DNA from: an uncultured bacterium
GTDB taxonomy: Bacteria > Patescibacteriota > Minisyncoccia > Phycocordibacterales > CAIZLB01
Assembly: GCA_903821355.1 (NCBI GenBank)
Contig: CAIJKW010000030.1
Location: 27,897 to 91,896 of the forward strand
DNA: 64,000 nt
Direction: 5' to 3'
Shown: in pieces, positions 813 through 60,362 of the stretch
How the letters are laid out: each line of letters begins with the position of its first letter
Numbering within the stretch: position 1 is the first letter of the stretch
Program-made: the position numbers and the translations under genes
Notes under the pieces: generated by a model
What the model was told of the DNA's origin: nothing
Database searches by the model: none
The model's input: only the letters and a program-made list of their open reading frames with translations

Positions 813-1211
813 GATGTGATGGTGGTGTTTGGTGTTGATCTCTTATGGTTTGGCAACTTCATCCAACCTGGATTTGATTGCACATGTCTTTGTATTAAAT
901 ATGCATAGACATGTACAATCAAAAACTTTGCCAAATAACACTTATTTCCAACCAAACATAATGTATCTATAAGGGGCTATACTGAGAAAAATACTAACAT
1001 ACAAATAGGGAATAGTCAACAGTGGTAAAATGAGCAGTGTCTGACATCAAAAACAACAAAACCCACACTTTCATGCGGGCTTTGTTGTTGTGCATCGTCG
1101 GCGCGCTTCACATCGTTTGTATAGCCAGCGTTAGCGTCAAACAGCAGTTTAACTCTAACATTGGCCGTACAAACTAGGTAAAATATGCACCTGCACTCCT
1201 TATTTTTAGTC

Positions 1212-7873: not shown

Positions 7874-8377
7874 TTAACTCAGGCACAAGCTGAGGAGGTG
7901 GTGATGTGTGTTGTCGAGATCGAGTTCCCAGTCATATTTGACCATCACTCCATACTCCCTACGCAGTCCATGTGGTCCATCATCAATCTCCGGTGCAAAG
8001 TGCATAAGAATTGTACCCAGGAGGGTGCTCGATTCGTCCGTGTTATTAATCACAATCACATATGCACCGTTCTCAGCGGCGGACATGCGTTCTTTGATTA
8101 AAGAAGTAACACTTTCTTTGGTGAGTCCACCTCCATTCAGTTGAGAGACAATCTCGATTTCAGCGCCAAGCCCGGTAGATAAGATTTTGGTAGTCAGCCT
8201 ATCGTCTTTTCTTCCGGCCAAGAGGTGAAGCGGCATATCTCTCTTCTTGGTTTTGATTCTCTTCGCAAGCCTTCTGGTCCTTTCGCATATTGATGATTTG
8301 TAAAGATCCCGTTCCGTTATGTCAGATTCTTCTGGATTGGGGGCGCAAACTATTCCGTAAATTCTGATTTGGCTCAT
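7874..8377 (-). CDS. hypothetical protein (GC-rich, possibly acquired)
   Basis: 167-aa ORF with noticeably higher GC than its neighbours. No motif recognised. Confidence 0.45.
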   Translation of the reverse strand: MSQIRIYGIVCAPNPEESDITERDLYKSSICERTRRLAKRIKTKKRDMPLHLLAGRKDDRLTTKILSTGLGAEIEIVSQLNGGGLTKESVTSLIKERMSAAENGAYVIVINNTDESSTLLGTILMHFAPEIDDGPHGLRREYGVMVKYDWELDLDNTHHHLLSLCLS

Positions 8378-10511: not shown

Positions 10512-10991
10512 ATGAAATTAATAACTTATATGATTAAAAATATGAAAATAACAAGGAATAAAAAGTTTTCTATGTTATTAGTTGCATTTACTATATTTGC
10601 TTCATTCTTTACTTTTATATCCAGTACTTCTGCTGCTACTACTGCCAATACAGCCGGTACAAATCCAGTCTCGGCTGTTCTGTTGAGATGTACTCAATCT
10701 GGAGTCGCTTGTGGTTTTAATGATTTTATAAGTCTAATAAATGGCATGATTCAGTATGGAATTGAATTAATAGGGATAGCATTTGTTATTGCCTTACTCT
10801 ACGCAGGTTTCTTGTATTTGACTTCGGGTGGTGACCCTTCAAAAGTCAAAAAAGTTAGAGATGTTCTCTACAAGATCATGTGGGGTATGGTATATACACT
10901 TTGTGGTTGGGTTATTGTATACTTTATAATAAAGAGTTTAGGTGTTCCAGTATCTTTTTACAATGGTCAATACGGACTTTTAAACATATAA
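10512..10991 (+). CDS. small secreted two-TM membrane protein (paralog family member 1)
   Basis: Signal peptide, then core IGIAFVIALLYAGFLYLTSGGDPSKVKKVRDVLYKIMWGMVYTLCGWVIVYF (TM, short charged loop, TM). Confidence 0.5.
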   Translation: MKLITYMIKNMKITRNKKFSMLLVAFTIFASFFTFISSTSAATTANTAGTNPVSAVLLRCTQSGVACGFNDFISLINGMIQYGIELIGIAFVIALLYAGFLYLTSGGDPSKVKKVRDVLYKIMWGMVYTLCGWVIVYFIIKSLGVPVSFYNGQYGLLNI

Positions 10992-10993
10992 AC

Positions 10994-11443
10994 ATGAAAA
11001 AAATTAGATTTATTTTATTTACGATTGTCGGTGCGGTAGTTTTGTTGTATGCAAGTAGTGCCAGTATAGCAAATGCAGAATTGTCTCTTCCTTGGGAACA
11101 AAGTAACGTTAATGCGTCTGCTGCTATAACACCTGTGCCGGTGACAGCCGCCGGATCATGCGCAACTGGAAAGATTTGTAATCCATTGGGTACAACAACA
11201 ACACTTAATCAAGTGTTAACTATTGTCATATCTACAGTCCAAGTCATTGCCGGTATATTGTCTGTTGTCTATCTTATTTTAGCCGGACTTAAGTTTGTGC
11301 TTGCAGCCGGCGACCCAGGAAAAATAACAAAAGCCAGAGCAATGCTTTTGTATGTCGTCATCGGTATAGCAATAATATTTGGCGCACAAGCCATATCCTT
11401 GGTCGTTCAGAATACAATTAAACAGGTGGGTAGTGGGCAATAG
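10994..11443 (+). CDS. small secreted two-TM membrane protein (paralog 2)
   Basis: MKKIRFILFTIVGAVVLLYASSASIANA signal peptide. Core VIAGILSVVYLILAGLKFVLAAGDPGKITKARAMLLYVVIGIAIIFGAQAI. Confidence 0.5.
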   Translation: MKKIRFILFTIVGAVVLLYASSASIANAELSLPWEQSNVNASAAITPVPVTAAGSCATGKICNPLGTTTTLNQVLTIVISTVQVIAGILSVVYLILAGLKFVLAAGDPGKITKARAMLLYVVIGIAIIFGAQAISLVVQNTIKQVGSGQ

Positions 11444-11494
11444 TTAATTGGACGAAGGATTATTCGTAAAAATTAGAAAAATAATAAGAAAAAA

Positions 11495-11809
11495 ATGCCA
11501 GATATAAAAAATTCTTTATCAGCTCAGGTTAGTAATGTTACAGACCTTAGAAGCTTGGTGGCTAGTTTGATCGATATGATCAGATACTACATCGTGCCGT
11601 TTATTATAGCCCTAGCTCTGATGTTCTTCTTGTGGGGATTATTTAAAACGATAACAGCAGCTGGCGACGGTAAAAAGAGGCAAGAGGGTATGGCTTACAT
11701 AACATATGGAATCATCGGCCTTGCTGTGATGGTTTCTGTTTGGAGTTTGGTATATCTTTTAACCTCAACGTTCTTCTCTAACGGCTTATTAATCCCTCAA
11801 CTTAATTAG
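11495..11809 (+). CDS. small two-TM membrane protein (paralog 3)
   Basis: FIIALALMFFLWGLFKTITAAGDGKKRQEGMAYITYGIIGLAVMVSVWSLVYLLTS. Confidence 0.55.
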   Translation: MPDIKNSLSAQVSNVTDLRSLVASLIDMIRYYIVPFIIALALMFFLWGLFKTITAAGDGKKRQEGMAYITYGIIGLAVMVSVWSLVYLLTSTFFSNGLLIPQLN

Positions 11810-11843
11810 TTTTCTTAAATTTAATTTTTTAATATAAAATAAA

Positions 11844-12137
11844 ATGACAAATGGACTTAGAGGTTTGATACTTTATCTAAATAGATTTATAGGTGCGATA
11901 ACGGCCTTTATCATTTCCTTGACGCTAGTATTTTTTCTCTGGGGTGTATTTAAATTGATTTTTTCAAACAAAGACTCAAAAGAGAGAGAGCAAGCAAAAG
12001 GGTTTATTGTTTGGGGACTAGTTGCTTTGTTTGTTATGATCTCTGTTTGGGGGTTGGTGAATTTGTTAACCAGTTCTTTTGGTTTTGGTAACGTCAATCC
12101 CATGTCTCCACAATTTCCAAATTCGCGCCTTATATAG
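11844..12137 (+). CDS. small two-TM membrane protein (paralog 4)
   Basis: FIISLTLVFFLWGVFKLIFSNKDSKEREQAKGFIVWGLVALFVMISVWGLVNLLTS. Confidence 0.55.
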   Translation: MTNGLRGLILYLNRFIGAITAFIISLTLVFFLWGVFKLIFSNKDSKEREQAKGFIVWGLVALFVMISVWGLVNLLTSSFGFGNVNPMSPQFPNSRLI

Positions 12138-12274
12138 TAACTTGAGGACAATTTGATTTATAAATATGTTTATATCTCTGTTTATATCTTTTGAATATTA
12201 AGGTATAATAGCGATAAGTGACATTACTGTTGCTTACATAAATATAAGCTTATCATTTAATAAAAAATTTAATT

Positions 12275-12592
12275 ATGAATAATCAACCTGGAATTAGTGG
12301 ACTTTACGCTCTATTGGCTCAAGTCACAGATTTCGTTAATAGACTGATTCCTTTTATCATCGGTCTTACAGTTCTATTCTTCTTGTGGGGAATTTTTAAA
12401 CTAGTTTTCTCAGCAGATTCTGATGCAAGAGCAGAAGCTAGAGGATACATCATTTGGGGAATCATCGGTCTTGCTGTAATGGTTTCTGTTTGGGGATTAG
12501 TAAACCTTTTGACAAGTACATTCAGTCTGAACTCAAACGTTCCTCCACCACCTGGTATTCCATCAGCAGGTGGAACAATTCAATTGAGATAG
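12275..12592 (+). CDS. small two-TM membrane protein (paralog 5)
   Basis: FIIGLTVLFFLWGIFKLVFSADSDARAEARGYIIWGIIGLAVMVSVWGLVNLLTS. Confidence 0.55.
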   Translation: MNNQPGISGLYALLAQVTDFVNRLIPFIIGLTVLFFLWGIFKLVFSADSDARAEARGYIIWGIIGLAVMVSVWGLVNLLTSTFSLNSNVPPPPGIPSAGGTIQLR

Positions 12593-12639
12593 TGTGTCAG
12601 TTTTGAATAGGTTTTTACTCTTGAATAATAAAAATAATC

Positions 12640-12930
12640 ATGTCAAATGTACCACCCGCATTGGCTTCTCTTATAAAAGGGATAGATAGATATGTCATAA
12701 ACCCTCTAATTGTTCTGGCTTTTGCTATTGCTATGGTAGTTTTTCTCTGGGGCGTTTTCAATTATGTAAGAGGAGCGGGGGATCCAAAAGCAAGAGAAAC
12801 AGGCAGAAGTCATATACTATGGAGTCTTATCGGTATGGCAATAATGTTTTCTGTTTTTGGGTTAATGACGATTATCTCAAATACGGTTGGTGGTCCAACA
12901 GGTAATATTACAAATATTCAGAAGCTCTAG
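12640..12930 (+). CDS. small two-TM membrane protein (paralog 6)
   Basis: LIVLAFAIAMVVFLWGVFNYVRGAGDPKARETGRSHILWSLIGMAIMFSVFGLMTIIS. Confidence 0.55.
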   Translation: MSNVPPALASLIKGIDRYVINPLIVLAFAIAMVVFLWGVFNYVRGAGDPKARETGRSHILWSLIGMAIMFSVFGLMTIISNTVGGPTGNITNIQKL

Positions 12931-13042: not shown

Positions 13043-13465
13043 TTAGGAGTTGTTGACGAAAGGTTTCTCGTCTGTCACTCCCGTGAGGTAATCCTGCCAA
13101 GCACATCTTTGAATGTATTTTGACCTTGCCCACGATTGAAATAGATGGTTTTTCTGATCGTCCGTTGTGCATTTCTCCAGTGCTTTTTGCATCGATGGGG
13201 AGATGGAGTCACCCTTTAGACTGTTATTGTAGTTTCTGCCCTCTTCTTTTGAGAGCTCAGACAATCTTCGAAAGAACCTGAGCAGATATTCAAGTGCGTC
13301 AATCTTTGCTATCCGTTTTTTTGAATAGTGTTTTGATTCTGCAAGGTATCGGTCAATAATACCTGACATCTGCCTTAGACTTATGGGTTTATTCTTTGGT
13401 AGTGTAAAACTTTGGATTCTCGATTTCATCTTGCTTTCTGGTGGAAAGAACAGGTGCCCGAACAC
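13043..13465 (-). CDS. hypothetical protein
   Basis: 140-aa ORF with slightly elevated GC. No motif recognised. Confidence 0.4.
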   Translation of the reverse strand: MFGHLFFPPESKMKSRIQSFTLPKNKPISLRQMSGIIDRYLAESKHYSKKRIAKIDALEYLLRFFRRLSELSKEEGRNYNNSLKGDSISPSMQKALEKCTTDDQKNHLFQSWARSKYIQRCAWQDYLTGVTDEKPFVNNS

Positions 13466-25204: not shown

Positions 25205-25873
25205 CTATCGCTTGTTTGCCAGTAGCGACGGTGCGAGAACAGATTCCACCTCTTCAATCCGACGCCGAAGATTTCTAAGTGGCTCCAGGTTGTCTTCACG
25301 CTTTTGGACGAGCGTTTTGATGGCCGCCGAAAGACCGTACCAAATATCTTTTGCGGTGAATCCTGTGAAATCCAAGAGAGATGATTGATCAAGTCTTGTG
25401 GGCTTAATCGAAACATACTTTGGAGTCCAGCGATGGTAGAAACCGCCCGGGGTAGTCAACATGTGAGCGATCTTCGTGATGTTTCCCAAAATCTCAATGG
25501 TAACTAATTTCATGTCACGACTTAACCCGAAGGTTTTTTGAGTTAGGCCTGTCGGCTCTTCTTTGTCATCCGGGTCATCGTAATTGAACTTTCGTTGGGC
25601 CATGACGTTTCTCCCAGACTCTGGGCAAATAACCCGTAGGTCTAGTGGTAGGCCGTCGATAACTAACGACCCATCTTCGGGCTTGGATTTTTTTATCGTG
25701 CGGCTTCCAAAGTAGTCCCAGTAAAGTTCAACATCCTCGATTGATTGGAGTGTCAAACTATGCATGAGCTGTGGAGTCAAAAGGTCCAATTGGGCCTTAA
25801 CGAGTTCCATCCACTCTTCATCTGTTAACGCGACAATATGGCGGGCCATAATCGCTTGTGCTTTCGATTTCAT
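25205..25873 (-). CDS. hypothetical protein (GC ~50%, likely horizontally acquired)
   Basis: 222-aa ORF with strongly elevated GC relative to the window. No recognisable motif. Confidence 0.5.
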   Translation of the reverse strand: MKSKAQAIMARHIVALTDEEWMELVKAQLDLLTPQLMHSLTLQSIEDVELYWDYFGSRTIKKSKPEDGSLVIDGLPLDLRVICPESGRNVMAQRKFNYDDPDDKEEPTGLTQKTFGLSRDMKLVTIEILGNITKIAHMLTTPGGFYHRWTPKYVSIKPTRLDQSSLLDFTGFTAKDIWYGLSAAIKTLVQKREDNLEPLRNLRRRIEEVESVLAPSLLANKR

Positions 25874-27512: not shown

Positions 27513-28271
27513 CTACCCCAACCCAACCACCCGCTCAAAATCCCTACTTTGCTCATACCTCTTGCCGTACGCCTTGCTCGCCTGATACAGCGCCATCAAA
27601 AGATGATTGATATTTTGATTTTCAATTTTTATGGCGACCTCCCTGAACCAATCGATAAAAAAAGAAAAATTACCAATCATAAACATCTCAGATTTTTCAT
27701 CCATAAAATCTGCAGAAACCTTAACCATGTCCTCCAGCCTCCCCGTGAATGCCTTGGCAACCAACTTAGCGTCAACTCCACTATATTGATTAAAAACACT
27801 TCTCGTCAGGTCTCCATGGACAATACTGTCTACGATAAATCTTTTATCGGTTATTGTTTGGCTAACTTCCTGAACAATCTTCTTTGAAGATCTCTTAATT
27901 GCTTCTCTAAAAGAAAGGCTTGGCTGAATACCGGTAAGCCTGCTTCCGATGGGCTCTTTAGTCACTTCCTGCCAAAGCGTCTCTATTGCTTTAGAACCAG
28001 AATATATTGTTATGGAACCAATTTTGACGATGGGGGACGGTGGCGGAATTGTTTGTTTGGTGGGGGTTTTTGAGGTGGGTAATTTATATATTTTTCTTTT
28101 CTTGTGAAGGGAGAAGGTTATTAGTTTTTTGCTGAGGAGTTTATTAATATTGTATTCGATGGTGCTTCTGGAGGTGGAGAGGCGTTTTGCGAGTGCCGCG
28201 AGGGTTCCGGGGAGAGTGAGGGAGAGGAGGATTTTTCTCTCGTGGGATGATAGATCGAGGTGGGTGGTCAT
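27513..28271 (-). CDS. putative winged-helix DNA-binding protein with uncharacterised C-terminal domain
   Basis: N-terminal HTH-like segment SSHERKILLSLTLPGTLAALAKRLSTSRSTIEYNINKLLSKKLI. The N-terminal coding DNA is G-rich. Confidence 0.4.
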   Translation of the reverse strand: MTTHLDLSSHERKILLSLTLPGTLAALAKRLSTSRSTIEYNINKLLSKKLITFSLHKKRKIYKLPTSKTPTKQTIPPPSPIVKIGSITIYSGSKAIETLWQEVTKEPIGSRLTGIQPSLSFREAIKRSSKKIVQEVSQTITDKRFIVDSIVHGDLTRSVFNQYSGVDAKLVAKAFTGRLEDMVKVSADFMDEKSEMFMIGNFSFFIDWFREVAIKIENQNINHLLMALYQASKAYGKRYEQSRDFERVVGLG

Positions 28272-30226: not shown

Positions 30227-30260
30227 CCCGCGCAAGCCATTCTGGCTTGCGCGGGTTCTT
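30227..30260. terminator. Bidirectional terminator between xth and the gtrA-like gene
   Basis: cccgcgcaagcc-attc-tggcttgcgcggg followed by ttctt. Confidence 0.6.
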
Positions 30261-30651
30261 AGGTGGTGAAAATTTTGCGTGTTATGAAGTAGCTCAAGAT
30301 GCTCAAAATCAGCGTGAGTATCACTTGCGAAATGTAAAGCTGGATGTGAACCCATTCGACAAGCATGTACAGCAGTGTCGTATTCAGTAGGAGGAATAAA
30401 AGCCCCATACCTATGTATTTGATTGCTTGTACATGAACGTCCTTTGTGTCACCGTTCTCGAATGTCCACAATTTCTGCAAGATGAAATTTGTCACTTGAT
30501 TTATCACATACGCGGAAATGGCCGAAGCCACATACCACACATGAACTAATTCAGTTAAAGAGTAAAGTGTGATGTAGTACAAACCCACACCGACTCCACC
30601 CGACAAACAAAATTTAGCCACCCGTTTCAATGTTTTTGATCTGATGTTCAC
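30259..30651 (-). CDS. GtrA-family membrane protein
   Basis: 130 aa, 4 TM segments, N-terminal KFCLSGGVGVGLYYITLYSL typical of GtrA-like proteins. Confidence 0.55.
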   Translation of the reverse strand: MNIRSKTLKRVAKFCLSGGVGVGLYYITLYSLTELVHVWYVASAISAYVINQVTNFILQKLWTFENGDTKDVHVQAIKYIGMGLLFLLLNTTLLYMLVEWVHIQLYISQVILTLILSILSYFITRKIFTT

Positions 30652-30817: not shown

Positions 30818-31290
30818 TCAGCCTTTGGCGTCGGATGGCGCTGTAGCTGGTGTTGTGGCTGGCGGTGTCGTCGGTGCTGTCGCAGACGGTGGTGTCGCGG
30901 GTGGTGGAGGGGTGACTGGAATCACGACAGGTTGGACTTTTTCTTCTTCGACGAAGAGGTAGACAATGGCCTTATCGTAAAGCGCGGTTTTCTCAATCTT
31001 GACCCACACGTGGTCCTTCTTGTCGTGCCTGTAGATGTTGATTGAGTTGCCTTTCTTACAGGCAATATCAACGCTGGTAGGCCATGACTCGGTATGCCCA
31101 AAGTCTTGGACCCTGAGCATTCCACCGTCCTTAACGCACCTGTCCGCCTGGCCGATCTTCATCGGCAGGTAAATTCCCCTGTCGCAATCGTGGCGCACAA
31201 TCTTGTCGCCGTTGATGTACATGGCGAGCCCGTAGCCTCCCCATATGGAAGCGGCGATGATGACTAAAATGAAGGCGTAGAAACTTTTCA
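30818..31290 (-). CDS. secreted/membrane-anchored Cys-containing protein with Pro/Thr-rich C-terminal tail (GC-rich)
   Basis: Signal-like MKSFYAFILVIIAASIWG. C-terminus PVTPPPPATPPSATAPTTPPATTPATAPS. GC is markedly above background. Confidence 0.45.
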
Positions 31291-31571
31291 TGGTGATGTT
31301 GTTGTTGTATTGTTGGTTGTTCACCCTCTTGCCCTACGGCACCTAAAGAGAGAGTGACTATTCAGCTACCAATAGGGAATTGGAAGTTCAATATTCACTC
31401 TCTCAAGCCAAATTTAAAGGATCTTTATTTGCATCAAACATAACACCTTATATGTAATAAGTCAAGTTTTATATACGCAAAATTTTGACAAAACTGTTCA
31501 TCTATGAGATGATGTCTTTGGATACATGAAGAGACGGTTCTCTTTATGGTTCAGAAGAATCAAAACAATCT

Positions 31572-31994
31572 GTGAATATGAAAACGAAAGAACCACAAGA
31601 ATCTAACATGAAACCTAGAAAAAGATCCAAGCCACAGCCCCCGAAGCCGGTGTTGGTAGTCACACGAGGGTCTACAGCTACCAAAATGGTTGGAACTCTG
31701 TGGCTAAGGGACATGGAGACGGGCGCCATGACGGAGCCGGCGGAGCCGGCGATTCGTTTTGGCGATACCGCTGAAGAGGCTTTGGGCAGTCTCGTGCTGG
31801 GTCCTTGCAGTAGCCTCTTTGAATTGAGGGAGTTCATCAAACTGAATCGCGGGTTAGTCCCCGAAACAGTTGGGAGAAATCTTCTTCAATCAGCTAGGCT
31901 TCCCAACGGTTGTCTAGTGGGTATTGAGATAGATACCCTGCAAAACCTAAACGAGTGGACTTACCACAAGGGCATTCAACCGGTGCATTCGTAG
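31572..31994 (+). CDS. hypothetical protein (GC-rich)
   Basis: 140-aa ORF with a Lys/Pro-rich N-terminus and elevated GC. No motif recognised. Confidence 0.4.
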   Translation: MNMKTKEPQESNMKPRKRSKPQPPKPVLVVTRGSTATKMVGTLWLRDMETGAMTEPAEPAIRFGDTAEEALGSLVLGPCSSLFELREFIKLNRGLVPETVGRNLLQSARLPNGCLVGIEIDTLQNLNEWTYHKGIQPVHS

Positions 31995-50742: not shown

Positions 50743-52020
50743 ATGAAAAAAAATTTCTCTTTTAAAATTGAAAAGGAATTGGAACAAGGCACCATGGCGC
50801 GTGCTGGTGTTTTAAGTACGCCTCATGGAGAAATTAAAACTCCGGCGTTTGTTACAGTTGGAACAAAAGCTACAGTAAAAGCGGTTCCACCTGAGATGCT
50901 AAAAGATTTGGGTGCACAGGTTGTGCTTGCAAATACATATCACTTATATTTACAACCTGGAGAGGAAACAATAAAAAATCACGGAGGAATTCATAAATTT
51001 ATGAACTGGAGTGGTCCAACGATGACAGACTCGGGAGGCTTTCAAGTTTTTTCACTAGGTAGCGCATTTGGAAAGGGGATTTCAAAGTTGATAAAAGGCA
51101 GAAACGCTAACAAAAATTTTGGATCAGATTTTGAGAATGAAATTCCACTTCCACAACAAACTGAGCTTTCTAAAACTGAGGCGGAGGAGCAAGCAATGAA
51201 GGTTGCAAAAATTGATGCACAAGGCGTGATGTTTCGCTCAATCATAGATGGAAGTGCACATTATTTTACGCCAGAGAAATCTATTCAAATTCAGAACGAT
51301 ATTGGTGCGGATATTATTTTTGCTTTCGATGAATGCACTTCTCCCCACGAGTCTCTTCATTATCAAGCGGAAGCATTGGATAGAACTCATAGATGGGCAA
51401 AGCAGTGCTTGGGCTATCACTTGCAAAGCGGACATGCGGAGGATCAGGCGCTTTTTGCAGTTGTACAAGGAGGAAGGCATGAAGGATTGCGTCGTGAAAG
51501 TGCCAAGGCGCTTGCGGAAATGAATGTCGATGGAGAGCATTTTGACGGCTATGGAATTGGCGGTTCATTTGAAAAGGAAGATATGGGCGAAGCGGTTTTG
51601 TGGTGCAATAGTGAACTACCAAAAGATAAACCAAGACACTTGCTTGGAATTGGTGAACCTGAGGATTTGTTTGATGCGGTAGAGAATGGTTGCGATTTAT
51701 TTGATTGCGTGATGCCAACAAGAAATGCAAGGAATGGCGGAATTTTAACTCGTGCTGGAAAAATAAATATTTTAAATACGGAGTATAGGGAAGACCTTCG
51801 TCCAGTTGAAGAGGGTTGCGGTTGTTATACTTGTAAAAATTATACGAGAAGTTATGTTGCACATTTGTTCCGCGCAAAGGAAATGTTAGCAGGGACACTT
51901 GCGAGCGTTCACAATTTATACTTTTTAATACATTTGGTAGACGAGATGCGTTTGGCAATTTTGGACGGGACTTTTGTGGAACTTAAGAGTGATTTTTTGA
52001 AAAAATGGAGGGGTTTTTAG
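50743..52020 (+). CDS. tgt: queuine tRNA-ribosyltransferase
   Basis: TPHGEIKTPAFVTVGTKATVK…VLANTYHLYL… and Zn site C.C..C…H (EGCGCYTCKNYTRSYVAHL). Carries a ~50-aa insertion. Confidence 0.85.
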   Translation: MKKNFSFKIEKELEQGTMARAGVLSTPHGEIKTPAFVTVGTKATVKAVPPEMLKDLGAQVVLANTYHLYLQPGEETIKNHGGIHKFMNWSGPTMTDSGGFQVFSLGSAFGKGISKLIKGRNANKNFGSDFENEIPLPQQTELSKTEAEEQAMKVAKIDAQGVMFRSIIDGSAHYFTPEKSIQIQNDIGADIIFAFDECTSPHESLHYQAEALDRTHRWAKQCLGYHLQSGHAEDQALFAVVQGGRHEGLRRESAKALAEMNVDGEHFDGYGIGGSFEKEDMGEAVLWCNSELPKDKPRHLLGIGEPEDLFDAVENGCDLFDCVMPTRNARNGGILTRAGKINILNTEYREDLRPVEEGCGCYTCKNYTRSYVAHLFRAKEMLAGTLASVHNLYFLIHLVDEMRLAILDGTFVELKSDFLKKWRGF

Positions 52021-52029
52021 GTGCGTGCG

Positions 52030-52615
52030 GGGTCTTGACAGACTTGAATAGTATGCTATCCTATTCAGGTCGACGCAGTTAAGTCTGCTTCCGCCACGGT
52101 ACCGCCGACGCCCCATTATGTGTCACCCAGGTTGGGTTACCTTGAGGGCGGTGCGCCCTTTACCCGCGGATTGACCGACATAAAATAGAGACTTTCCAAA
52201 TTGCTTCTATCGGGCGCAGGCTTGATTTGAAGGGGTTTAGGAAAATCCTCGTTTATATCCCGCTGCAGAATGGGTTCGCCTGCAGGAAACGGAAGAGTGA
52301 AGCGAAACCTAGCCGATGGGGGAATGCATGATGAAAGCAGGTGAAATCTGCGATGCGGGACATCCCCGCTATATCTAGTTCAGTGCGATGTTGCTTCTGA
52401 GACCAGAACATCGTTTACCCACTGGGACACCGATAACAGCTAAAGTATCGGAGAAAGGCTCCCTGTGTATGCAATAGCAGGAACTCCACCGCTAACCTAG
52501 AATGCGGAAAGGAGAGAGGTTTTGCCGAGATCACGGTATTACTTTGATAAAATATTGCAATTGGTCCACCCCTATGTGGGTGATCCTCCGGTTCGCTACG
52601 TGCGGCCGGGGGATT
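52030..52615 (-). ncRNA. Candidate RNase P RNA (rnpB)-like structured RNA; strand and ends tentative
   Basis: ORF-free, GC-enriched 637-bp gap. The minus strand carries GGUCAAUCCGCGGGUAAAGGGCGCACCGCC, CAAGGUAACCCAACCUGGGUG, …CAUAGGGGUGG… and GGAAAGUC. These resemble E. coli/Bacillus RNase P RNA (GGUGAAAGGGUGCGGUAAGAGCGCACCGC; CAAGGCCAAAUAGGGG; CCAUAGGGCAGGGUG; GGAAAGUCC). The plus strand also shows short matches (GGUGAAA, AACUCCACC). Confidence 0.35.
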
Positions 52616-52657
52616 TTTGTTTTTGTATTTTGAACCTCTAAATGCTATCATCAATAC

Positions 52658-54904
52658 ATGAAATTATCGGAAAAATCTAACCCGGCGGACAAAAAATCTA
52701 GTGGAAAGTCCAAAAAGGAGTCTGGTCTAAAAAACACCGGCGTTTTTGACTTGTCTACAGAATACACTCCTGCTGGTGATCAGCCACAGGCTATTTCAAA
52801 GTTGCTTACTGGGCTGGAAAAAGGCCTAAGATACCAAACACTTTTTGGTGTTACAGGATCTGGAAAGACATACACGATGGCAAATGTCATTGCAAAAGTT
52901 GGAAAGCCAACGCTTGTGATTGCACACAACAAAACCTTGGCAGCACAGCTTGCGCAGGAGTATAGAGAATTTTTTCCAAATAACGCGGTGCATTACTTCG
53001 TATCATATTATGATTACTATCAACCGGAGGCATACATTTCTTCATCGGATACATATATAGAAAAAGAGGCGCAAATAAATGAGGAAATTGAGCGTCTTCG
53101 TCATGCTTCAACTCAGGCGCTTTTGACACGCAAGGATGTAATTATTGTTGCATCAGTTTCTTGTATTTATGGATTGGGTTCGCCAAAAGAATATGAGAAA
53201 GTAAATTTTAAAATTGAAAAAGGGATGAAAGCGGACAGGTCAGAATTTGTTAGACGTCTTGTCGGAATGTATTTTGAAAGAACAAATGCGGATTTAAATC
53301 CGGGAAATTTTAGAGCGGTTGGTAATTCAATTGAAATAATGCCGGTGAGTGAGCGAGTGGTTTATAGATTAAAGATCGATGGAGCTGGTGGGGATGAAAC
53401 TGTTTCTGAAATTACAGTTATTGATGCTATTACAAGAAATATTATAGAAGAAACAAACGCATTATTTTTGTTCCCCGCAAAGCACTTCGTTACACCGGAA
53501 AATGAAAGAGCTCGTGCGGTGAAAGATATCAAGGCTGAGCTTGATGCACGTCTGAAAGTTTTGGATGCGGAGGGAAAAATTATTGAAGCGGAGAGATTGC
53601 GCAGGAGAACCACATATGACTTGGCGCTTATCAAAGAAGTTGGATATTGTAACGGAATTGAAAACTATTCCCGTCATTTTTCTGGAATGGCACCAGGGGA
53701 GGCACCTGATACTTTGCTTTCATATTTTCCACACAAGGAAGATGGTAGCCCTGATTTTTTGACAGTGATTGATGAATCGCACGTCGCTGTTCCACAGCTT
53801 AATGGAATGTACGCAGGGGATGCATCGAGAAAAAAGAATTTAATTGATTATGGTTTTAGGCTTCCTTCAGCGGCGGACAATAGGCCTTTAAAGTTTAACG
53901 AATTTGAACAGCGCGTCGGTCAAGTCGTCTTTACCACGGCGACTCCTGGAAAATTTGAGTTTGAAAATAGTAAGCAGATTGTCGAGCAAATTATTAGACC
54001 AACTGGTTTGATTGATCCTGTTCTAGTAGTGAAGCCTGTGACGGCTGTTGCCAAAGTAAAAGCTGGCAAGGGCATGGTCGGCAAAAAAGAGGGCGCCAGC
54101 AATGGCAGTAAAGACAGCGATGGAAACACCGGCCAAATTTTTGATTTCATAGAAGAAGCAAAAAAAGTTATTAAGAAAAATCAACGCGCTATTGCTACAA
54201 CTCTGACTAAAAAAATGGCAGAGGATTTAACAGAATATTTGAAAGAGCAGGGAATTAAGACAAATTATATTCACAGTGACATTCAAACACTAGAGCGTAT
54301 TCAAATTTTGACGGATTTTCGTCGAGGAGTTTTTGATATTCTAGTTGGTGTCAACTTACTTCGTGAAGGCTTGGACTTGCCAGAAGTTTCTCTGATTGGA
54401 ATTTTGGATGCGGACAAGGAAGGATTTCTAAGATCTGAATCTGCATTGATCCAAACAATTGGCCGTGCCGCTAGAAACGTTGATGGTAAAGTTATTTTAT
54501 ACGCTGACCATATGACAGGCTCACTTGAGCGAGCGATGAGAGAGACGGAAAGAAGGCGCGTCTTGCAACTCGCATATAATAAAGAACACGGAATCACTCC
54601 TCAAACTATTATAAAAAGAATTAACGATATTACTGACCACATAAAGAGTGAACACCAAAAAACTGTCGGCAAATTGATTTTGCTTGATGAGTTAGAATTT
54701 GCAAAAAATCCAGATAAGCTAATCAAGTCTAAAGAAAAACAGATGGAAGAGGCCGTGAAGATTTTGGATTTTGAAACTGCTGCAATTTTGCGCGATGAGA
54801 TAAAGGAGTTATCAGAGCGAACACTGAAGAAGTTGAAGAAAGAAGCCAAGGAGAAGCGCGATGTGAATAAGGGTTCAAGAGCGAGGAAACAGATGTTGGA
54901 GTAG
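52658..54904 (+). CDS. uvrB: excinuclease ABC subunit B
   Basis: PAGDQPQAI…GVTGSGKT…YYDYYQPEAY, helicase motifs and C-terminal UVR domain. Small low-complexity insert. Confidence 0.95.
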   Translation: MKLSEKSNPADKKSSGKSKKESGLKNTGVFDLSTEYTPAGDQPQAISKLLTGLEKGLRYQTLFGVTGSGKTYTMANVIAKVGKPTLVIAHNKTLAAQLAQEYREFFPNNAVHYFVSYYDYYQPEAYISSSDTYIEKEAQINEEIERLRHASTQALLTRKDVIIVASVSCIYGLGSPKEYEKVNFKIEKGMKADRSEFVRRLVGMYFERTNADLNPGNFRAVGNSIEIMPVSERVVYRLKIDGAGGDETVSEITVIDAITRNIIEETNALFLFPAKHFVTPENERARAVKDIKAELDARLKVLDAEGKIIEAERLRRRTTYDLALIKEVGYCNGIENYSRHFSGMAPGEAPDTLLSYFPHKEDGSPDFLTVIDESHVAVPQLNGMYAGDASRKKNLIDYGFRLPSAADNRPLKFNEFEQRVGQVVFTTATPGKFEFENSKQIVEQIIRPTGLIDPVLVVKPVTAVAKVKAGKGMVGKKEGASNGSKDSDGNTGQIFDFIEEAKKVIKKNQRAIATTLTKKMAEDLTEYLKEQGIKTNYIHSDIQTLERIQILTDFRRGVFDILVGVNLLREGLDLPEVSLIGILDADKEGFLRSESALIQTIGRAARNVDGKVILYADHMTGSLERAMRETERRRVLQLAYNKEHGITPQTIIKRINDITDHIKSEHQKTVGKLILLDELEFAKNPDKLIKSKEKQMEEAVKILDFETAAILRDEIKELSERTLKKLKKEAKEKRDVNKGSRARKQMLE

Positions 54905-55059
54905 TCGTAGACTATTCCAATAGTCGGCTGAGACTGTTTGAATAACTTTTGTTGAGTAATTAACCTTTGTGTGCTATTTTGTCTTGGTCTTGTCCGAGTG
55001 GACAGTGGACAATTTGATCTTTACATTGTTGTTAAAATTCGAACCCCCAAATTGAAGTC

Positions 55060-55758
55060 ATGGATAATTACAAGAGATTGAGAACGGCCTTTGCCATTGT
55101 TGGTGCACCTTCGTGCGCAAAAGGAACATGCGTTAAGTATGTTTTTGAAGACTTCTGCAAAAAAGCTGGCATCACGATGATCGACATTTCGGTTGGCCAG
55201 CTATTGAAGCGACACGTCAGCGAGATGAAGGACAGAAGACTTGCTGCGCAAATCTTGGACGATATGAATTCTGGACGCTTGGTATCTGACAGCGTTGTCA
55301 ACGCTGTCTTTGCTGACGCGATGGAAGATGCCGCCTCTCTGTATGGCGACACAGACGACCCGTTGATGATCGTCCTCGATGGTGTTCCAAAGACGGCTGG
55401 CCAAATCAAGCCTTCCGTCTCCTCTGTGACAGACAAGTTCAATGTTCCGGTGTCGGAATTCAACATCGTTCACATTTCCACCCCTCCGCATATCTGTGCT
55501 TACCGCATGGGGATTCAAGGGAGGAGAGACGGTATTGTGGAAGCCATTGTCGCCACTCGTTTCAAGGAATATTTCGAGAAGATTCTTCCGGCAATCAAGT
55601 TGCTGAAGGATTTTACCGACAACTCCGAATCCGAGTTCTATGAAATCAACGGTCAGTTCATGATTGATGAAGCCTACAGTTACCAGAAAAAACTCTTCAG
55701 TCACTTGTGGCCAGAGTACTTTCCGGGAATGGTTCGGCGGATTCCAATCACTGCCTGA
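55060..55758 (+). CDS. adenylate/nucleoside-monophosphate kinase-like protein with degenerate P-loop (GC ~50%, likely acquired)
   Basis: IVGAPSCAKGTCVKYVFEDF… against the adk consensus ILGPPGAGKGTQA. The LID/NMP-bind-like region SVGQLLKRHVSE…LDGVPKTAGQ is present. GC is far above background, so an antisense ORF also appears. Confidence 0.5.
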   Translation: MDNYKRLRTAFAIVGAPSCAKGTCVKYVFEDFCKKAGITMIDISVGQLLKRHVSEMKDRRLAAQILDDMNSGRLVSDSVVNAVFADAMEDAASLYGDTDDPLMIVLDGVPKTAGQIKPSVSSVTDKFNVPVSEFNIVHISTPPHICAYRMGIQGRRDGIVEAIVATRFKEYFEKILPAIKLLKDFTDNSESEFYEINGQFMIDEAYSYQKKLFSHLWPEYFPGMVRRIPITA

Positions 55759-55778
55759 TCTTTGTTTGCGATTCTGCA

Positions 55779-55808
55779 GCCGCCGCCCTTCCAGGGCGGC
55801 GGCATTTG
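55779..55808 (+). terminator. Rho-independent terminator after the adk-like gene
   Basis: gccgccgccc-ttcca-gggcggcggc followed by attt. Confidence 0.5.
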
Positions 55809-55888
55809 CTTTGCCAATAACCCTAAAATGTTCTATACTTACCCTAACGGCCAACACGCCGGTTTTTGTCGTTTCAATATTTTAAAAC

Positions 55889-58816
55889 ATGCCTAAACTA
55901 CCCAAAAAACCTAAAAAAAGCTTGAAAAAGCATATAGAGAGTCTGACTAAAAAGAAGACTGCAGATACGCAGGTTCATAAAGAGTTGCCCGCACATGACA
56001 TAAATCACGGAGCTCTTCATGGAACTTTAAACAATCCTGCTCTCACTGGAGACATAATAAGCATAAGAGGTGCCAGAACTCACAATTTAAAAAACATTAC
56101 CGTTGATATGCCCCGTAATAAAATGGTGGTAATAACGGGATTATCTGGTTCTGGAAAGTCATCGCTCGCATTTGATACAATTTTTGCAGAAGGACAACGC
56201 AGATACATAGAATCACTTTCCTCTTATGCTCGTCAATTTTTGCGTCAATTACAAAAACCAGATGTTGATGAAATTATAGGACTTTCTCCAGCAATTTCCA
56301 TTGATCAAAAATCTCGATCAAATAACCCTCGTTCAACTGTTGCAACTATCACAGAAATTTATGACTATCTCAGAATTCTTTTTGCAAGAATTGGAAAGCC
56401 GCACTGTTTAATTTGCGGAAGAGAAATTAAAAAACTTTCTAAGGAAGAAATTCTTTCAACAATTTTTAACACAGTTACAAATTCGTCAACAACAGACGGC
56501 GCCGGTGCAAACGGATCCGTCGCAGGTACAACGACAAGTAAAGTCATGGGTGTTGATATTGATAAAGCAATGTTCAAAATTTATGCGCCTGTTGTAATTG
56601 GTAGAAAGGGTGAATATTATCAAATGCTTTATGATTTACTCGGCAAAGGTTATGAAGAAGTGCGCGTTGACGGCGCTATCAAAAACCTGCGTAGCCAAAT
56701 TATTCTTTCGAAAACAAAAAAACACAATATTGATGTTTTGGTTGATCAATTTTATATTTCAGAAATAGGAGACAACTCTGCAAGTTTCAGGGAGCGTCTT
56801 AATGAAGCGGTAGAAAAAGCACTGCATGAAGCTGATGGACTAATTAGAATTATTAGTGATGCCGATGAAGCAATTGCAAGTGGTTTTATAAACGTAGACG
56901 GCAAGGTTGTTGGTCCGGATGGCAAGAAAAGAAAAGCAAAACCTAAGGGTGATGCAGCAGAGGCTCAAGTTGGACATCTTATTTCTTCAAAATTTATGTG
57001 TCCACACGATGGATTTTCTTTTCCTGAAGTTGAACCTCGTCTATTTTCTTTCAACTCTCCATATGGAGCGTGTCCTGAATGTAATGGACTTGGAACAAGG
57101 GAGTTTTTTGTAAAAGATCCTTGTAAGGTTTGTCATGGCGCAAGACTCCGACCTGAAGCCCTTCATGTTTTTCTAAAATCGGCTGTGCCAATGCCTTCAA
57201 TAATCGATACGATTGGTGAAATAAAAAGAGGGGATAGTAAGAATATAAATATCGTTGATCTGACAAAGATGACAATTCAAAATTCTATTAAATTCTTTGA
57301 GACGCTACCTTTAACACCAACTGAAGAAGATATTTCAAGAATCGTAATTAAGGAAATTGTTTCAAGATTGCGCTTTATGGAGAATGTTGGAATAGAATAT
57401 CTATCGCTTGATAGACGTGCAAACACTCTCTCGGGAGGTGAAGCACAGCGTATCAGGCTTGCATCACAACTTGGATCAGGTCTTGTTGGTGCTATGTATG
57501 TTTTGGATGAACCAACAATCGGTCTTCATCAGCGTGATAATGACAGATTGATTCACACACTTTTGCAACTGCGTGACATGGGTAACTCTGTGATTGTTGT
57601 TGAACATGATGAAGATACTATTTTTGCAGCAGATTATATTGTCGATATAGGCCCCGGCGCTGGAGTTCATGGTGGACATGTGGTGGCCGCTGGATGGCTT
57701 GATAAACTACTTACCGCAAAGACAAATCAATCAAGCTCTGTTACTCTTGAATATTTAAGAGGAGAAAAAGTTATTGAGTTACCTGAGCGGAGACGTGATG
57801 AAAATAACGGCTGGATAAAAATTGTTGGAGCAACAGTAAATAATCTTAAAAATGTAAATGTGGATGTTCCTCTTGGCAGAATGACATCTGTTACAGGTGT
57901 GTCTGGTTCAGGAAAATCATCTTTTGTTTATGAAGTCTTGCACAAAAACTTGTTAGCCCGCCTTGATCGAGATCACAGAAGTGCAAACATTTATAATTGC
58001 GCAAGTTTTTCTGGAACAGAATATTTGGGAAGAACTGTGCTGATTGACCAATCGCCAATTGGAAGAACTCCAAGATCAAATCCCGCAACATACACTGGTG
58101 CTTTCACGCATATCAGAGATCTCTTTGCAGAGACAATAGAATCACGCGCTCGCGGATGGAAATCAAGTAGATTTAGCTTCAACGTCAAAGGCGGACGATG
58201 CGAGAACTGCCAAGGAAATGGAATGATTGAAGTTGAAATGCATTTCTTGCCAACGGTCTATGTGACATGTGATATCTGTAATGGAAAAAGATTCATGAAA
58301 GAGACTTTGGAAGTTAAATATAAAAATAAAAATATTTACGATGTTTTGAAGATGACGGTTGAAGAAGCTATCACGTTCTTTGAAGAGGTTCCTTCAATTT
58401 ATGATCGTCTAAAGACCTTGCAAGAAGTTGGTCTTGGATATTTGGAACTCGGCCAGTCCGCGACAACACTTTCTGGTGGAGAGGCACAACGTGTAAAAGT
58501 TTCTTCTGAACTTTATAGAGAGCATATTCAAAAAACAATCTATCTTTTGGATGAACCAACAATTGGTCTGCATTATGAAGATGTGCGCAAGTTAATTGAA
58601 ATCCTTAAACGCCTTGTAAGAAAGGGGAATACGGTTGTGATAATCGAACACAATATGGATATTATAAAATGTTCAGATTATATAATTGATATTGGTCCCG
58701 AGGGTGGAGATAAGGGTGGTAAGATTGTAGCTGTTGGAACTCCAGAGGAAGTTGCAAAAAATACTAATAGTTATACGGGGCAGCACTTGAATAAAGTTCT
58801 GAAGAAATGGGACTAG
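55889..58816 (+). CDS. uvrA: excinuclease ABC subunit A
   Basis: Two ABC modules (GLSGSGKSS…, GVSGSGKSS…), LSGGEAQR signatures and Zn-finger cysteines. 975 aa. Confidence 0.95.
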
Positions 58817-58925
58817 ACGTCAGATACCATACACTAATTTAAAAATATGTTGTAATATTTTGTCAAATGTATTCACCTCACAGTTTTGCTATGCTTTAAA
58901 GGTAATTTTGCAAAAAAGTACTGAA

Positions 58926-60362
58926 ATGCTAAAAAAAGACTTCGAAAAATTAATAGCGTCAAAACTGCCAGAAGCTCCTGGAATCTATCTTTTCAAAAAA
59001 GGAAAAGATCTTCTTTATGTTGGCAAGGCAACAAGCTTGCGTCAGCGTGTTCGTAGTTATTTTTCTAATGACTTAATGAAAACTCGCGGGCGGCTTTTGG
59101 TTGACATGATTGCAACAGCCGACAAAATTGATTTTCAAAAAACGGATTCTGTTTTGGAAGCTCTGATTCTGGAGGCTCAATTCATAAAAGAACATCAACC
59201 AAAATATAATACTAAAGATAAGGACAATAAAAGTTATAATTATGTTGTGATAACGGAAGAAGACTTTCCTTGCGTGCTTGTGGTGCGTGGTAGAAACCTA
59301 GAACAAAACTTGAAAAACTTGAAGCAAAATCTTGGCGAGGAAAAATACAAATACACATTTGGTCCATATCCTTATGGAGGAGAATTAAAAGAGGCGTTAA
59401 AACTTATTAGAAAAATATTTCCATTCAGAGATAAATGTACTCCATTTTCAGAAATTAAAATAAATACTAAGTCGCATTCAGGCCAGTATCTAAGGCTATC
59501 TCCAAGGCCATGTTTTAACAGAACAATTGGTCTTTGCCCAGGGGTTTGTACTGGTGAAATATCAAAAAAAGATTACGCGACGCAGATAAAAAATATTAAA
59601 ATGTTTTTTGAGGGTAAAAAACCTGCGCTTCTCAAGTCTCTAACCAAACAAATGTCGGCATTTGCCAAAGAAAAAGAATTTGAAAAAGCTGGCCAAATTA
59701 AAAAAACAATTTTTGCGTTGAATCATATTCAAGATGTATCTTTAATGAAAAGAGTCGAGTCTGAAAGAATAAGAGTGGTTACTTCTGACGAAACAAATTC
59801 AACTAGTTTGGCAAAAAACCAAAGTCTTAGAATTGAAGCTTATGATATAGCCCACATGTCGGGGCAAAATATGGTTGGAGCTATGGTTGTGATGGAAAAT
59901 GGGGAACTAGTAAACGGCCTTTATAGAAAATTTATAATTAAAGGTTTCGATAAAGCAAATGACCCCGGCGCCCTTGCTGAAACAATTAAAAGAAGAGTAA
60001 ATCATCCAGAATGGGGCTTACCAGATATTATTGTGCTTGATGGAAATCAAATTCAACTCAAGCGTGCCGTTGAGACATGGAAAGAAATATTAGGCAGTGA
60101 ATCACTAAATCGAAAATATTCAGTAAATCAAAACGTCCTGTTTTGTAGTGTGGTAAAAGACCAGTCTCATAAAGCAAGAGAAGTATTGTTTTTTGATGAA
60201 GAAATGTGGAAAAAATCGCAAATGGAAATAGAAGAAAAATTTGGAATATCAAAAAAGACCCTGCAGGAGCAGATCGTTAAAATTAATACTGAGGCACATA
60301 GGTTTGTGATTGCTTTTCATAAAAAAAGAAGAGGTAAAAACTTTTTAAGTAATGTGCTTTAA
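58926..60362 (+). CDS. uvrC: excinuclease ABC subunit C (short form; C-terminal HhH region apparently absent)
   Basis: GIY-YIG domain (PGIYLFKKGKDLLYVGKATSLRQRVRSYF…) and UvrC homology region. About 480 aa against the typical ~600. Confidence 0.8.
   Translation: MLKKDFEKLIASKLPEAPGIYLFKKGKDLLYVGKATSLRQRVRSYFSNDLMKTRGRLLVDMIATADKIDFQKTDSVLEALILEAQFIKEHQPKYNTKDKDNKSYNYVVITEEDFPCVLVVRGRNLEQNLKNLKQNLGEEKYKYTFGPYPYGGELKEALKLIRKIFPFRDKCTPFSEIKINTKSHSGQYLRLSPRPCFNRTIGLCPGVCTGEISKKDYATQIKNIKMFFEGKKPALLKSLTKQMSAFAKEKEFEKAGQIKKTIFALNHIQDVSLMKRVESERIRVVTSDETNSTSLAKNQSLRIEAYDIAHMSGQNMVGAMVVMENGELVNGLYRKFIIKGFDKANDPGALAETIKRRVNHPEWGLPDIIVLDGNQIQLKRAVETWKEILGSESLNRKYSVNQNVLFCSVVKDQSHKAREVLFFDEEMWKKSQMEIEEKFGISKKTLQEQIVKINTEAHRFVIAFHKKRRGKNFLSNVL

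Follow-up and report, generated by a model that had tools for sequence, protein, structure and literature searches.

An adenylate-kinase-like gene resident in the uvrB-uvrA spacer of Parcubacteria, with a probably eroding catalytic site

Gene, neighbours and fold

We analysed a 64-kb stretch of a contig from an uncultured bacterium (CAIJKW010000030.1, positions 27,897 to 91,896; hereafter the window), in which an adenylate kinase (ADK)-like gene, here termed ADKL, lies between the nucleotide excision repair genes uvrB and uvrA, with uvrC next (Table 1). The C-terminus of UvrB placed the window in the Parcubacteria/Paceibacterota, the best GTDB species representative being 72% identical over the segment, and the same scan of GTDB representatives also supplied loci for comparison. 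The initial annotation of the window had described a 232-amino-acid gene at this site, and the open reading frame (ORF) and the Pfam assignments agree with it; of the span that it gave, 55060-55808, the start stood, and the ORF ends at 55758, the rest being the terminator hairpin and the T-rich tail. The public NCBI/ENA gene call from the same contig (P0001, 193 amino acids, 55177-55758) starts from Met40, omits the conserved N-terminus and the P-loop, and so conceals how unusual the P-loop is. Because the full N-terminus is conserved among all homologues, the start codon at 55060 is the correct one.

ADKL matched the Pfam family ADK (PF00406) over residues 13-183 with a score of 40.1 bits (gathering score, 26.8; E=5e-10). 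Because this score is over the threshold, six full-length homologues exist and dN/dS is about 0.1 (see below), ADKL is confirmed to be a real gene and not a chance ORF. AlphaFold2, given the family alignment, produced a model with a predicted local distance difference test score (pLDDT) of 74 and a predicted template modelling score of 0.70. When this model was compared with the PDB by Foldseek, the top 50 matches were all adenylate, uridylate or UMP-CMP kinases (probability 1.0); the best target-normalised TM-scores were to short-LID structures (8PVW, 0.72; 2CDN, 0.71; 1UKY, 0.70), and the top match by E-value was CMPK1 (7.7e-09), with identities of ADKL to solved structures of 14-23%. Furthermore, a profile of the family matched the short Escherichia coli AK 8pvw in the PDB at E=8e-18, and the hidden Markov model (HMM) alignment to this structure provided the E. 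coli residue numbering given below. ADKL is thus a protein of the ADK fold, as the earlier reading of its motifs had proposed, with CORE, NMP (nucleoside monophosphate)-binding and LID architecture.

The same comparisons set ADKL apart from known enzymes of this fold. All 16 of the NCBIfam adk and UMP-CMP kinase models scored far under their cut-offs (best, TIGR01351 with 51.5 bits against 168; UMP-CMP kinase TIGR01359 with 33.6 bits against 207.6), and ADKL departs from a bona fide adk in equivalog score, P-loop glycines, catalytic arginines and chromosomal location, adk usually lying in the ribosomal-protein or secY-adk-map cluster. Neither another ADK-family gene nor a ribosomal-protein operon was found in the window. 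The initial annotation had named a convincing alignment to a housekeeping enzyme with native codon usage as evidence against its reading; no convincing alignment to a housekeeping adk was obtained, and the codon usage of ADKL is not native, its GC content at third codon positions (GC3) being atypical. The Mycobacterium tuberculosis Adk (2CDN) and the engineered short E. coli AK (8PVW) have the same CORE, NMP-binding domain and short LID as ADKL and share with it the Walker lysine, the G-x-L-V-x-D and (L/V)DG-x-P motifs and the equivalents of Q92, R119, R156, D158 and R167. Unlike them, ADKL has GAPSCAKGT in place of GxPGxGKGT, has replaced the equivalents of R36, R88, R123 and D159, carries a C-terminal extension of 20-30 residues (LWPEYFPG), and is located between uvrB and uvrA. 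Human CMPK1 (7E9V/1TEV) and yeast Ura6 (1UKY) have, like ADKL, a short LID with an R-x-x-R-G...R-x-D-D pattern; in contrast to the UMP-CMP kinases, ADKL retains the adenylate-kinase-type 'PRT..Q' motif and gives no sign of pyrimidine specificity.

Relatives, synteny and base composition

A search of 5.8e9 protein clusters returned seven proteins, P0001 from the same contig included, which we refer to as the core clade. An exhaustive profile search of 1.84e9 representatives recovered one core and five outgroup representatives at E values of 1e-46 to 1e-26, with ordinary ADKs at E>=1e-12, and a second profile search added eight further distant members. Against the core profile, the uvr-linked family as a whole scored at E 1e-130 to 1e-26 and ordinary ADKs at E>=1e-12. 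One outgroup protein (P0164) is listed as 'MAG: adenylate kinase [Candidatus Parcubacteria bacterium]' at NCBI and as 'adenylate kinase family enzyme' at JGI. Residues invariant across the family include C146, R149, R155, D157, E161, R167 and P177. The outgroup proteins occupy the same slot in the same orientation, belong to the same size class and have the same raised GC as the window ADKL; they also share with it the S at the G32 position, the loss of R36 and the conserved C146-x-x-R149, and differ from it in their canonical GPPGCGKGT P-loop, in having all of R88, R123 and D159, and, in most cases, in lacking the WPE-FPG tail. The fold and the Pfam family are already known; the novelty lies in a subfamily of Parcubacteria that is linked to the uvr genes, progressively erodes its catalytic site and keeps an excess of GC3, and a literature search returned nothing on such a subfamily. 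Scanning GTDB species representatives with core-clade motifs only turned up no relative. We rejected a phage, plasmid or defence origin, as IMG/VR held no relative, no significant match was obtained in the PADLOC and PHROG families, and phages and plasmids gave only generic ADK matches (24-33%). A metagenome scan with the family alignment gave no uvr-linked members among the 80 loci listed, the back-translated pattern being that of a generic P-loop.

Next, we looked at how ADKL is placed in other genomes. The order uvrB-ADKL-uvrA, all on one strand, was found in the window and in 11 other loci with informative flanks, the sole exception being the core locus L001. Among the outgroup loci, the arrangement was uvrB-ADKL-uvrA-uvrC at L089, the same with tgt ahead of uvrB at L088, and uvrB-ADKL at L091; L083 and L084 had tgt ... 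uvrB-ADKL-large peptidoglycan (PG)-binding protein-uvrA, L085 had uvrB ... ADKL-second ADK paralog-uvrA-uvrC, and L086 and L087 had uvrB-second ADK paralog-small ORF-ADKL-uvrA-uvrC. At these outgroup loci ADKL is 24-33% identical to the window protein, and UvrA, where the locus reaches uvrA, is 70-79% identical. Four of the six core homologues have uvrB and/or uvrA as flanks (L002, L090, L092 and L093), with flanking proteins 82-92% identical to those of the window and ADKL only 54-66%. ADKL was present at every sampled locus with a UvrA at least 70% identical; Parcubacteria with a UvrA of 63-66% identity keep tgt-uvrB-...-uvrA-uvrC and lack ADKL. In distant Parcubacteria (L004, L005, L008, L009, L010, L011 and L015) the uvrB-uvrA spacer ranges in length from about 0.1 to 2.5 kb; its genes, where there are any, are unrelated (HIT-family, cupin, MGMT-like gene, YdjC, small membrane proteins), and it is a site where genes are repeatedly gained and lost inside a conserved tgt-uvrB-uvrA-uvrC block. 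Moreover, the distances between ADKL proteins followed those between UvrA proteins (Spearman rho = 0.64, median ratio about 4; the 36 locus pairs are non-independent and the P value is only indicative). Neither direct repeats nor integrase, transposase or other mobility genes were found within 54600-56100, and the nearest tRNA is at 39.2 kb of the window.

These results show ADKL to be an ADK-fold paralog that is specific to this lineage, lives in the uvr cluster and has been passed on vertically. The initial annotation had judged the gene probably acquired horizontally; the ancestral uvrB-X-uvrA synteny, which it had itself named beforehand as speaking against that judgement, is what related genomes display. 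Two observations on individual loci may be added. In L001, whose flanks matched neither the window nor the other loci, the promoter-gene-terminator unit is followed directly by an ISL3-family transposase gene (986-2191, minus strand). Some spacers hold the second ADK-family paralog of 254-263 amino acids (L085, 5716-6480; L087, 1243-2019; L086, 2081-2872), with a GPQGSGKTT P-loop, SVGEILR, EGFPRT..Q and a long N-terminal extension; a paralog of this type was not found in the window.

The GC and GC3 of ADKL were 0.481 and 0.575, compared with 0.402 and 0.35 for uvrB, 0.384 and 0.27 for uvrA, and 0.344 and 0.28 for uvrC, in a window of 0.383 GC. The contrast first described, about 50% against about 36%, was therefore right in direction and slightly overstated in size. 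The excess lies in GC3, which is 2.3 standard deviations over 46 other ORFs of the window (mean about 0.33); GC1 and GC2 (first and second codon positions) were ordinary. Across all loci, ADKL had a GC of 0.435-0.484 against 0.35-0.42 for its neighbours and a GC3 of 0.40-0.575 against 0.21-0.37, the window copy having the highest GC3 of the family. An un-ameliorated import cannot explain this offset, because synonymous divergence is saturated between members (dS above 1) and the offset is nevertheless common to all; raised GC is thus a trait of the gene family and not a scar of transfer. We also considered high GC3 as drift to a neutral composition and rejected this, the intergenic GC being only 0.37 and some orphan ORFs having low GC3.

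ADKL is not alone in its composition: the window has eight further small ORFs with a GC3 of 0.46-0.66, where typical genes have about 0.30, and these stand-alone accessory genes make up a class by composition. Apart from a GtrA-like protein and a weak helix-turn-helix match, they mostly belong to no Pfam family, and several have GC-rich hairpin terminators resembling that of ADKL.

We then compared the transcription signals around ADKL among core-family loci. A block TTGA..TAAT...TATGCTATTTTGT is near-invariant across four aligned loci and contains an element that matches the promoter consensus at 8/12 positions and was missed by a simple consensus scan; its conservation and its likeness to the TGCTAT -10 elements that precede uvrB and the 52.0-kb transcript suggest that it is the ADKL promoter. 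In the hairpin where the ADKL mRNA is predicted to start, the stems read GTCC/GGAC in the window and L002, GCCC/GGGT in L001 and GCCT/GGGT in L090, with pairing kept and both sides changed. A hairpin directly past the uvrB stop codon has a compensatory change in L090 (GACTAC/GTAGTC at the equivalent site) and is a putative end of the uvrB unit; it has no T-run, and its terminator role is tentative. The terminator claimed for ADKL itself was borne out by a hairpin of 11 bp, 10 of them G-C, followed by a T-rich tail; L001, L002 and L090 keep it, and in L002 a C/G swap is compensatory. Because uvrA has a promoter of its own (10/12 consensus matches, kept in L002 and L090), ADKL and uvrA are probably separate transcription units. 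A shared operator or SOS-like box of uvrB, ADKL and uvrA was sought in their upstream regions and rejected, as only the general TGCTAT -10 was in common, and Rfam had no match in the ADKL leader or flanks. Past the uvrA -10 box, where the uvrA mRNA is predicted to start, a further hairpin followed by GTTTTT is kept in L002 and L090 with a varying loop and may be a leader or attenuator element.

Catalytic site, selection and interpretation

To place the substitutions of ADKL, we compared 7 core, 13 outgroup and 118 ordinary ADK-family sequences site by site. The P-loop GAPSCAKGT and the LDGVPK motif, both read directly from the sequence as first reported, are where the core clade and then the window copy depart from the ordinary pattern. 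At position 18 of the P-loop, G is found in 96/118 ordinary and 13/13 outgroup sequences and S or C in all seven core sequences; at position 20, G is found in 113/118 and 13/13, respectively, and A in 7/7. The R36 equivalent (K50 in the window) is R in 97/118 ordinary, 3/13 outgroup and 2/7 core sequences, and a G32-to-S replacement is family-wide. Three further changes are confined to the window: K111 at the R88 position (R in 117/118, 13/13 and 6/7), Q153 at R123 (R in 116/118, 13/13 and 6/7) and G158 at D159 (D in 113/118, 13/13 and 6/7). The window copy has thus replaced three of five catalytic arginines (K50, K111 and Q153) and one aspartate, and R155 (R156), R167 and D157 (D158) stay, as does R149 (R119) in the LID. 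In the window copy, the six sites invariant in 19 other members that have changed are S46G, R111K, L127F, R153Q, D158G and T175I, three of which are catalytic; siblings have 0-1 private changes each, and the window ADKL is also the most distant from the outgroup (28.1% identity against 31.8-33.1%). The P-loop T23 was lost in two siblings (A in P0004, K in P0005). In the C-terminal extension, which has low pLDDT and is not found in ordinary adenylate kinases, P218, E219, F221 and P222 are invariant across the core; the sister protein P0012 has MWPAYFQ, and the extension is absent in the other outgroup members. C19 and C146 were considered as a redox or metal site and rejected, both residues being common at those positions in ordinary ADK-family proteins. 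The phrase 'divergent or repurposed kinase' used in the initial annotation was a fair one, and the erosion goes further than it claimed (R88K, R123Q and D159G in the window alone).

In the least saturated pair (L001-L090), the nonsynonymous divergence (dN) was 0.090 and the synonymous divergence (dS) 0.93, giving a dN/dS (omega) of about 0.10. Between the window and core members the dN of ADKL was 0.24-0.31, compared with about 0.06 for the uvrB/uvrA flanks in the same genome pairs, a 4-5x difference. Because dN/dS is about 0.1, the family is maintained, under a constraint weaker than that on the repair genes.

Taken together, we favour, at a probability of about 0.55, the reading that ADKL is a vertically inherited ADK-fold paralog of the uvrB-uvrA spacer whose catalytic site is eroding, leaving a pseudoenzyme or a weak kinase. 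On this reading, the gene settled in the spacer before this clade of Parcubacteria (Patescibacteria, or candidate phyla radiation, CPR) diversified and has descended vertically since; it evolves about four times faster than UvrA and forms a transcription unit of its own, whose promoter and terminator are both conserved. Its older members, which have the canonical GPPGCGKGT and four of the five catalytic arginines with an altered NMP site (G32 to S, R36 mostly lost), may well be active as NMP kinases whose acceptor site has been remodelled. Such activity would fit the report that Parcubacteria are poor in cmk, gmk and tmk, adk being common in them (Nelson and Stegen 2015, PMC4508563). The seven-member subclade has replaced two P-loop glycines (GxP[S/C]CAKG) and carries the LWPE[Y/F]FPG tail, and the window copy alone has gone on to put K, Q and G in place of the E. 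coli residues R88, R123 and D159, respectively. We infer that efficient ATP:NMP phosphotransfer has most likely been lost in the core clade, most of all in the window copy, and that purifying selection on the fold would retain the protein as a nucleotide-binding or otherwise non-catalytic pseudoenzyme, at best as a weak kinase. P-loop-kinase pseudoenzymes as a general category likewise have a fold under purifying selection and eroding catalytic motifs; in ADKL, unlike in them, the loss of activity would be a reading of the sequence, and a literature search returned no described ADK-family pseudoenzyme.

Several points weigh against this reading. A possible, if clearly less probable, alternative is that ADKL, for all its unusual P-loop, still works as an NMP kinase, acting on CMP, UMP, GMP or dTMP or using another phosphate donor. 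K21, D107, Q115, the G-R-L-V-x-D NMP hinge, R149, R155, D157 and R167 are all kept, omega is about 0.1, and the family-wide remodelling of the NMP site (G32 to S, R36 variable) would suit a changed acceptor where cmk, gmk and tmk are scarce. The S and A of the P-loop are small and could still form an anion hole, the R-to-K change at position 111 is conservative, and P-loop substitutions vary in their effect, an alanine in place of the first glycine having been tolerated in mycobacterial CoaE (PMC3019153). Further points against the eroding-paralog reading are that the window and P0001 are the same contig, from which all three private catalytic changes come; that synonymous saturation affects nearly every pair (dS >1.4 or undefined wherever the window is involved), so that omega is not that of the window branch; that vertical descent alone does not account for a persistently high GC3 where intergenic GC is only 0.37; that the core homologue of L001 adjoins a transposase in another context; and that the structural model, with a pLDDT of 74 from a 7-sequence alignment, is only moderate. 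Against a working kinase, however, the window has G18S, G20A, R88K, R123Q and D159G at sites 81-99% conserved in the 118 ordinary proteins and lacks R36 as well, T23 is replaced in two siblings, every NCBIfam adk and UMP-CMP kinase model stays far under its cut-off, and mutations of the equivalent arginines in AK1 or E. coli Adk lower kcat by orders of magnitude. If the six private substitutions, the lowest outgroup identity and the highest GC3 of the family are instead taken as signs of relaxed selection, the gene could be decaying in the window genome, an intact ORF heading to a pseudogene. We think this unlikely, as neither a frameshift nor a stop interrupts the full-length frame, the expression signals (promoter, 5' hairpin and terminator) have all been kept, the hydrophobic core and C-terminal motif are intact, and the dN of the window copy to core members is not above the distances between other subclades.

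The remaining alternatives concern the position of the gene. A recent horizontal insertion of a foreign GC-rich cassette between uvrB and uvrA could account for the GC3 offset (z=2.3) and for the self-contained unit from promoter to terminator, and the uvrB-uvrA spacer is variable among Parcubacteria. One core homologue, that of L001 (63% identical to the window protein), adjoins an ISL3 transposase in a non-uvr context. Yet the same slot is filled by members down to 24% identity next to UvrA proteins 70-79% identical, GC is raised in all members despite saturated dS, ADKL divergence follows UvrA divergence, the flanks hold no insertion scars (direct repeats, integrase or tRNA), and no relative came from GTDB species representatives (core-clade motifs only), IMG/VR, phages, plasmids or PADLOC; recent transfer is thereby largely refuted, and we consider it the least probable of all the explanations. 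That ADKL is an accessory of nucleotide excision repair, either regenerating ATP from ADP locally or sensing nucleotides for the UvrA/UvrB ATPases, is a weak lead drawn from its position, which is the same in 12/12 informative loci across deep divergence and is shared in some genomes by a second ADK-family paralog. We regard it as improbable, if somewhat less so than insertion, given that ADKL and uvrA each have a promoter of their own, and ADKL a terminator as well, that no operator is common to the three genes, that the functionally unrelated tgt is equally syntenic, that spacers of other lineages hold unrelated genes (HIT, cupin, iPGM, TrmB, PG-binding protein), that the erosion of the catalytic site argues against ATP regeneration in the window clade, and that a literature search found no precedent. 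A narrower and still speculative version, slightly less improbable, is that ADKL has abandoned phosphotransfer and, retained by purifying selection with its new C-terminal motif, become an ADK-fold sensor of nucleotides or energy charge that partners the UvrA/UvrB ATPases; if true, no earlier pseudoenzyme derived from an ADK would have been linked with nucleotide excision repair.

The stakes are modest and the function is a prediction from sequence. Parcubacteria and other CPR bacteria have a minimal nucleotide metabolism, and the eroding-paralog reading would make ADKL a natural series at one chromosomal position, from a canonical site through a remodelled P-loop to the loss of three catalytic residues. 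Such a series could reveal the true NMP-kinase activities of Parcubacteria and the route from kinase fold to pseudoenzyme. Moreover, a gene with raised GC3 that brings its own transcription signals, promoter and terminator alike, is here no mark of recent horizontal transfer.

Other features of the window

Coordinates of the features discussed are collected in Table 1.

Table 1. Positions of genes, motifs and signals in the window
Feature	Coordinates	Strand	Basis or remark
ADKL	55060..55758	+	ORF, 232 aa, ATG start
P-loop, G15-A-P-S18-C-A20-K21-G-T23	55102..55128	+	read from sequence
L106-D-G-V-P-K111	55375..55392	+	canonical LDGFPR; AMP-phosphate arginine replaced
Short LID, R149...Q153-G-R155-R-D157-G158...R167	55504..55560	+	HMM alignment
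C-terminal extension, LWPE(Y/F)FPG	55699..55755	+	not in ordinary adenylate kinases
tgt	50743-52020		Pfam; upstream of uvrB
uvrB	52658..54904	+	Pfam UvrB, UvrB_inter, Helicase_C, UVR
uvrA	55889..58816	+	Pfam UvrA_inter, ABC_tran x4
uvrC	58860..60362	+	43 bp past uvrA; Pfam GIY-YIG, UVR, UvrC_RNaseH_dom
Hairpin GACTAT-TCCA-ATAGTC	54910..54925	+	directly 3' of uvrB stop codon
Putative ADKL promoter	54952..54980	+	-35 TTGAGT (54952-54957), 17-nt spacer, TG-extended -10 TATTTT (54975-54980)
6-bp hairpin TTGTCC GAGT GGACAG	54990..55005	+	GAGT loop; predicted 5' end of ADKL mRNA
ADKL intrinsic terminator, GCCGCCGCCCT-TCC-AGGGCGGCGGC then ATTTGCTTTG	55779..55813	+	terminator scan; hairpin 55779-55803
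uvrA promoter, TTGCCA-17-TATACT	55811..55839	+	consensus match
Hairpin CGGC-CAACAC-GCCG then GTTTTT	55848-55867	+	candidate uvrA leader element
GC-rich stretch between tgt and uvrB	52040-52615	+	candidate structured RNA
Six tandem membrane proteins	10512-12930	+
GC3-rich small ORF	225-812	-
GC3-rich small ORF	7874-8377	-
GC3-rich small ORF	13043-13465	-
GC3-rich small ORF	25205-25873	-
GC3-rich small ORF	27513-28271	-
GC3-rich small ORF	30259-30651	-
GC3-rich small ORF	30818-31324	-
GC3-rich small ORF	31572-31994	+

An antisense ORF at 55201-55857 (218 amino acids) was considered as the real gene here or as a second one and rejected, its codon-aligned frame having 5-8 stops in most orthologues; it is a shadow ORF arising from the high GC3 of ADKL. 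Farther downstream, the UvrC of the window is short (500 amino acids, and similarly 452-499 in relatives), and Pfam found no C-terminal helix-hairpin-helix domain in it.

Between tgt and uvrB lies a GC-rich stretch (about 0.50) of ~560 nucleotides with no plausible ORF. It opens with a promoter-like TTGACA...TATGCTAT, has a strong terminator hairpin and T-run at about 52583-52625, and has a predicted fold of -196.8 kcal/mol (z=-3.5 against shuffles). We found no Rfam match to it even at E<=10, no transfer-messenger RNA (ARAGORN) and no sequence match among the fetched relatives, and we propose it as a candidate lineage-specific structured RNA.

Elsewhere in the window, six small membrane proteins (about 96-187 amino acids) are encoded in tandem and have similar C-terminal halves, and one of the six matches the type IV secretion system pilin/TrbC family (PF18895, PF04956).

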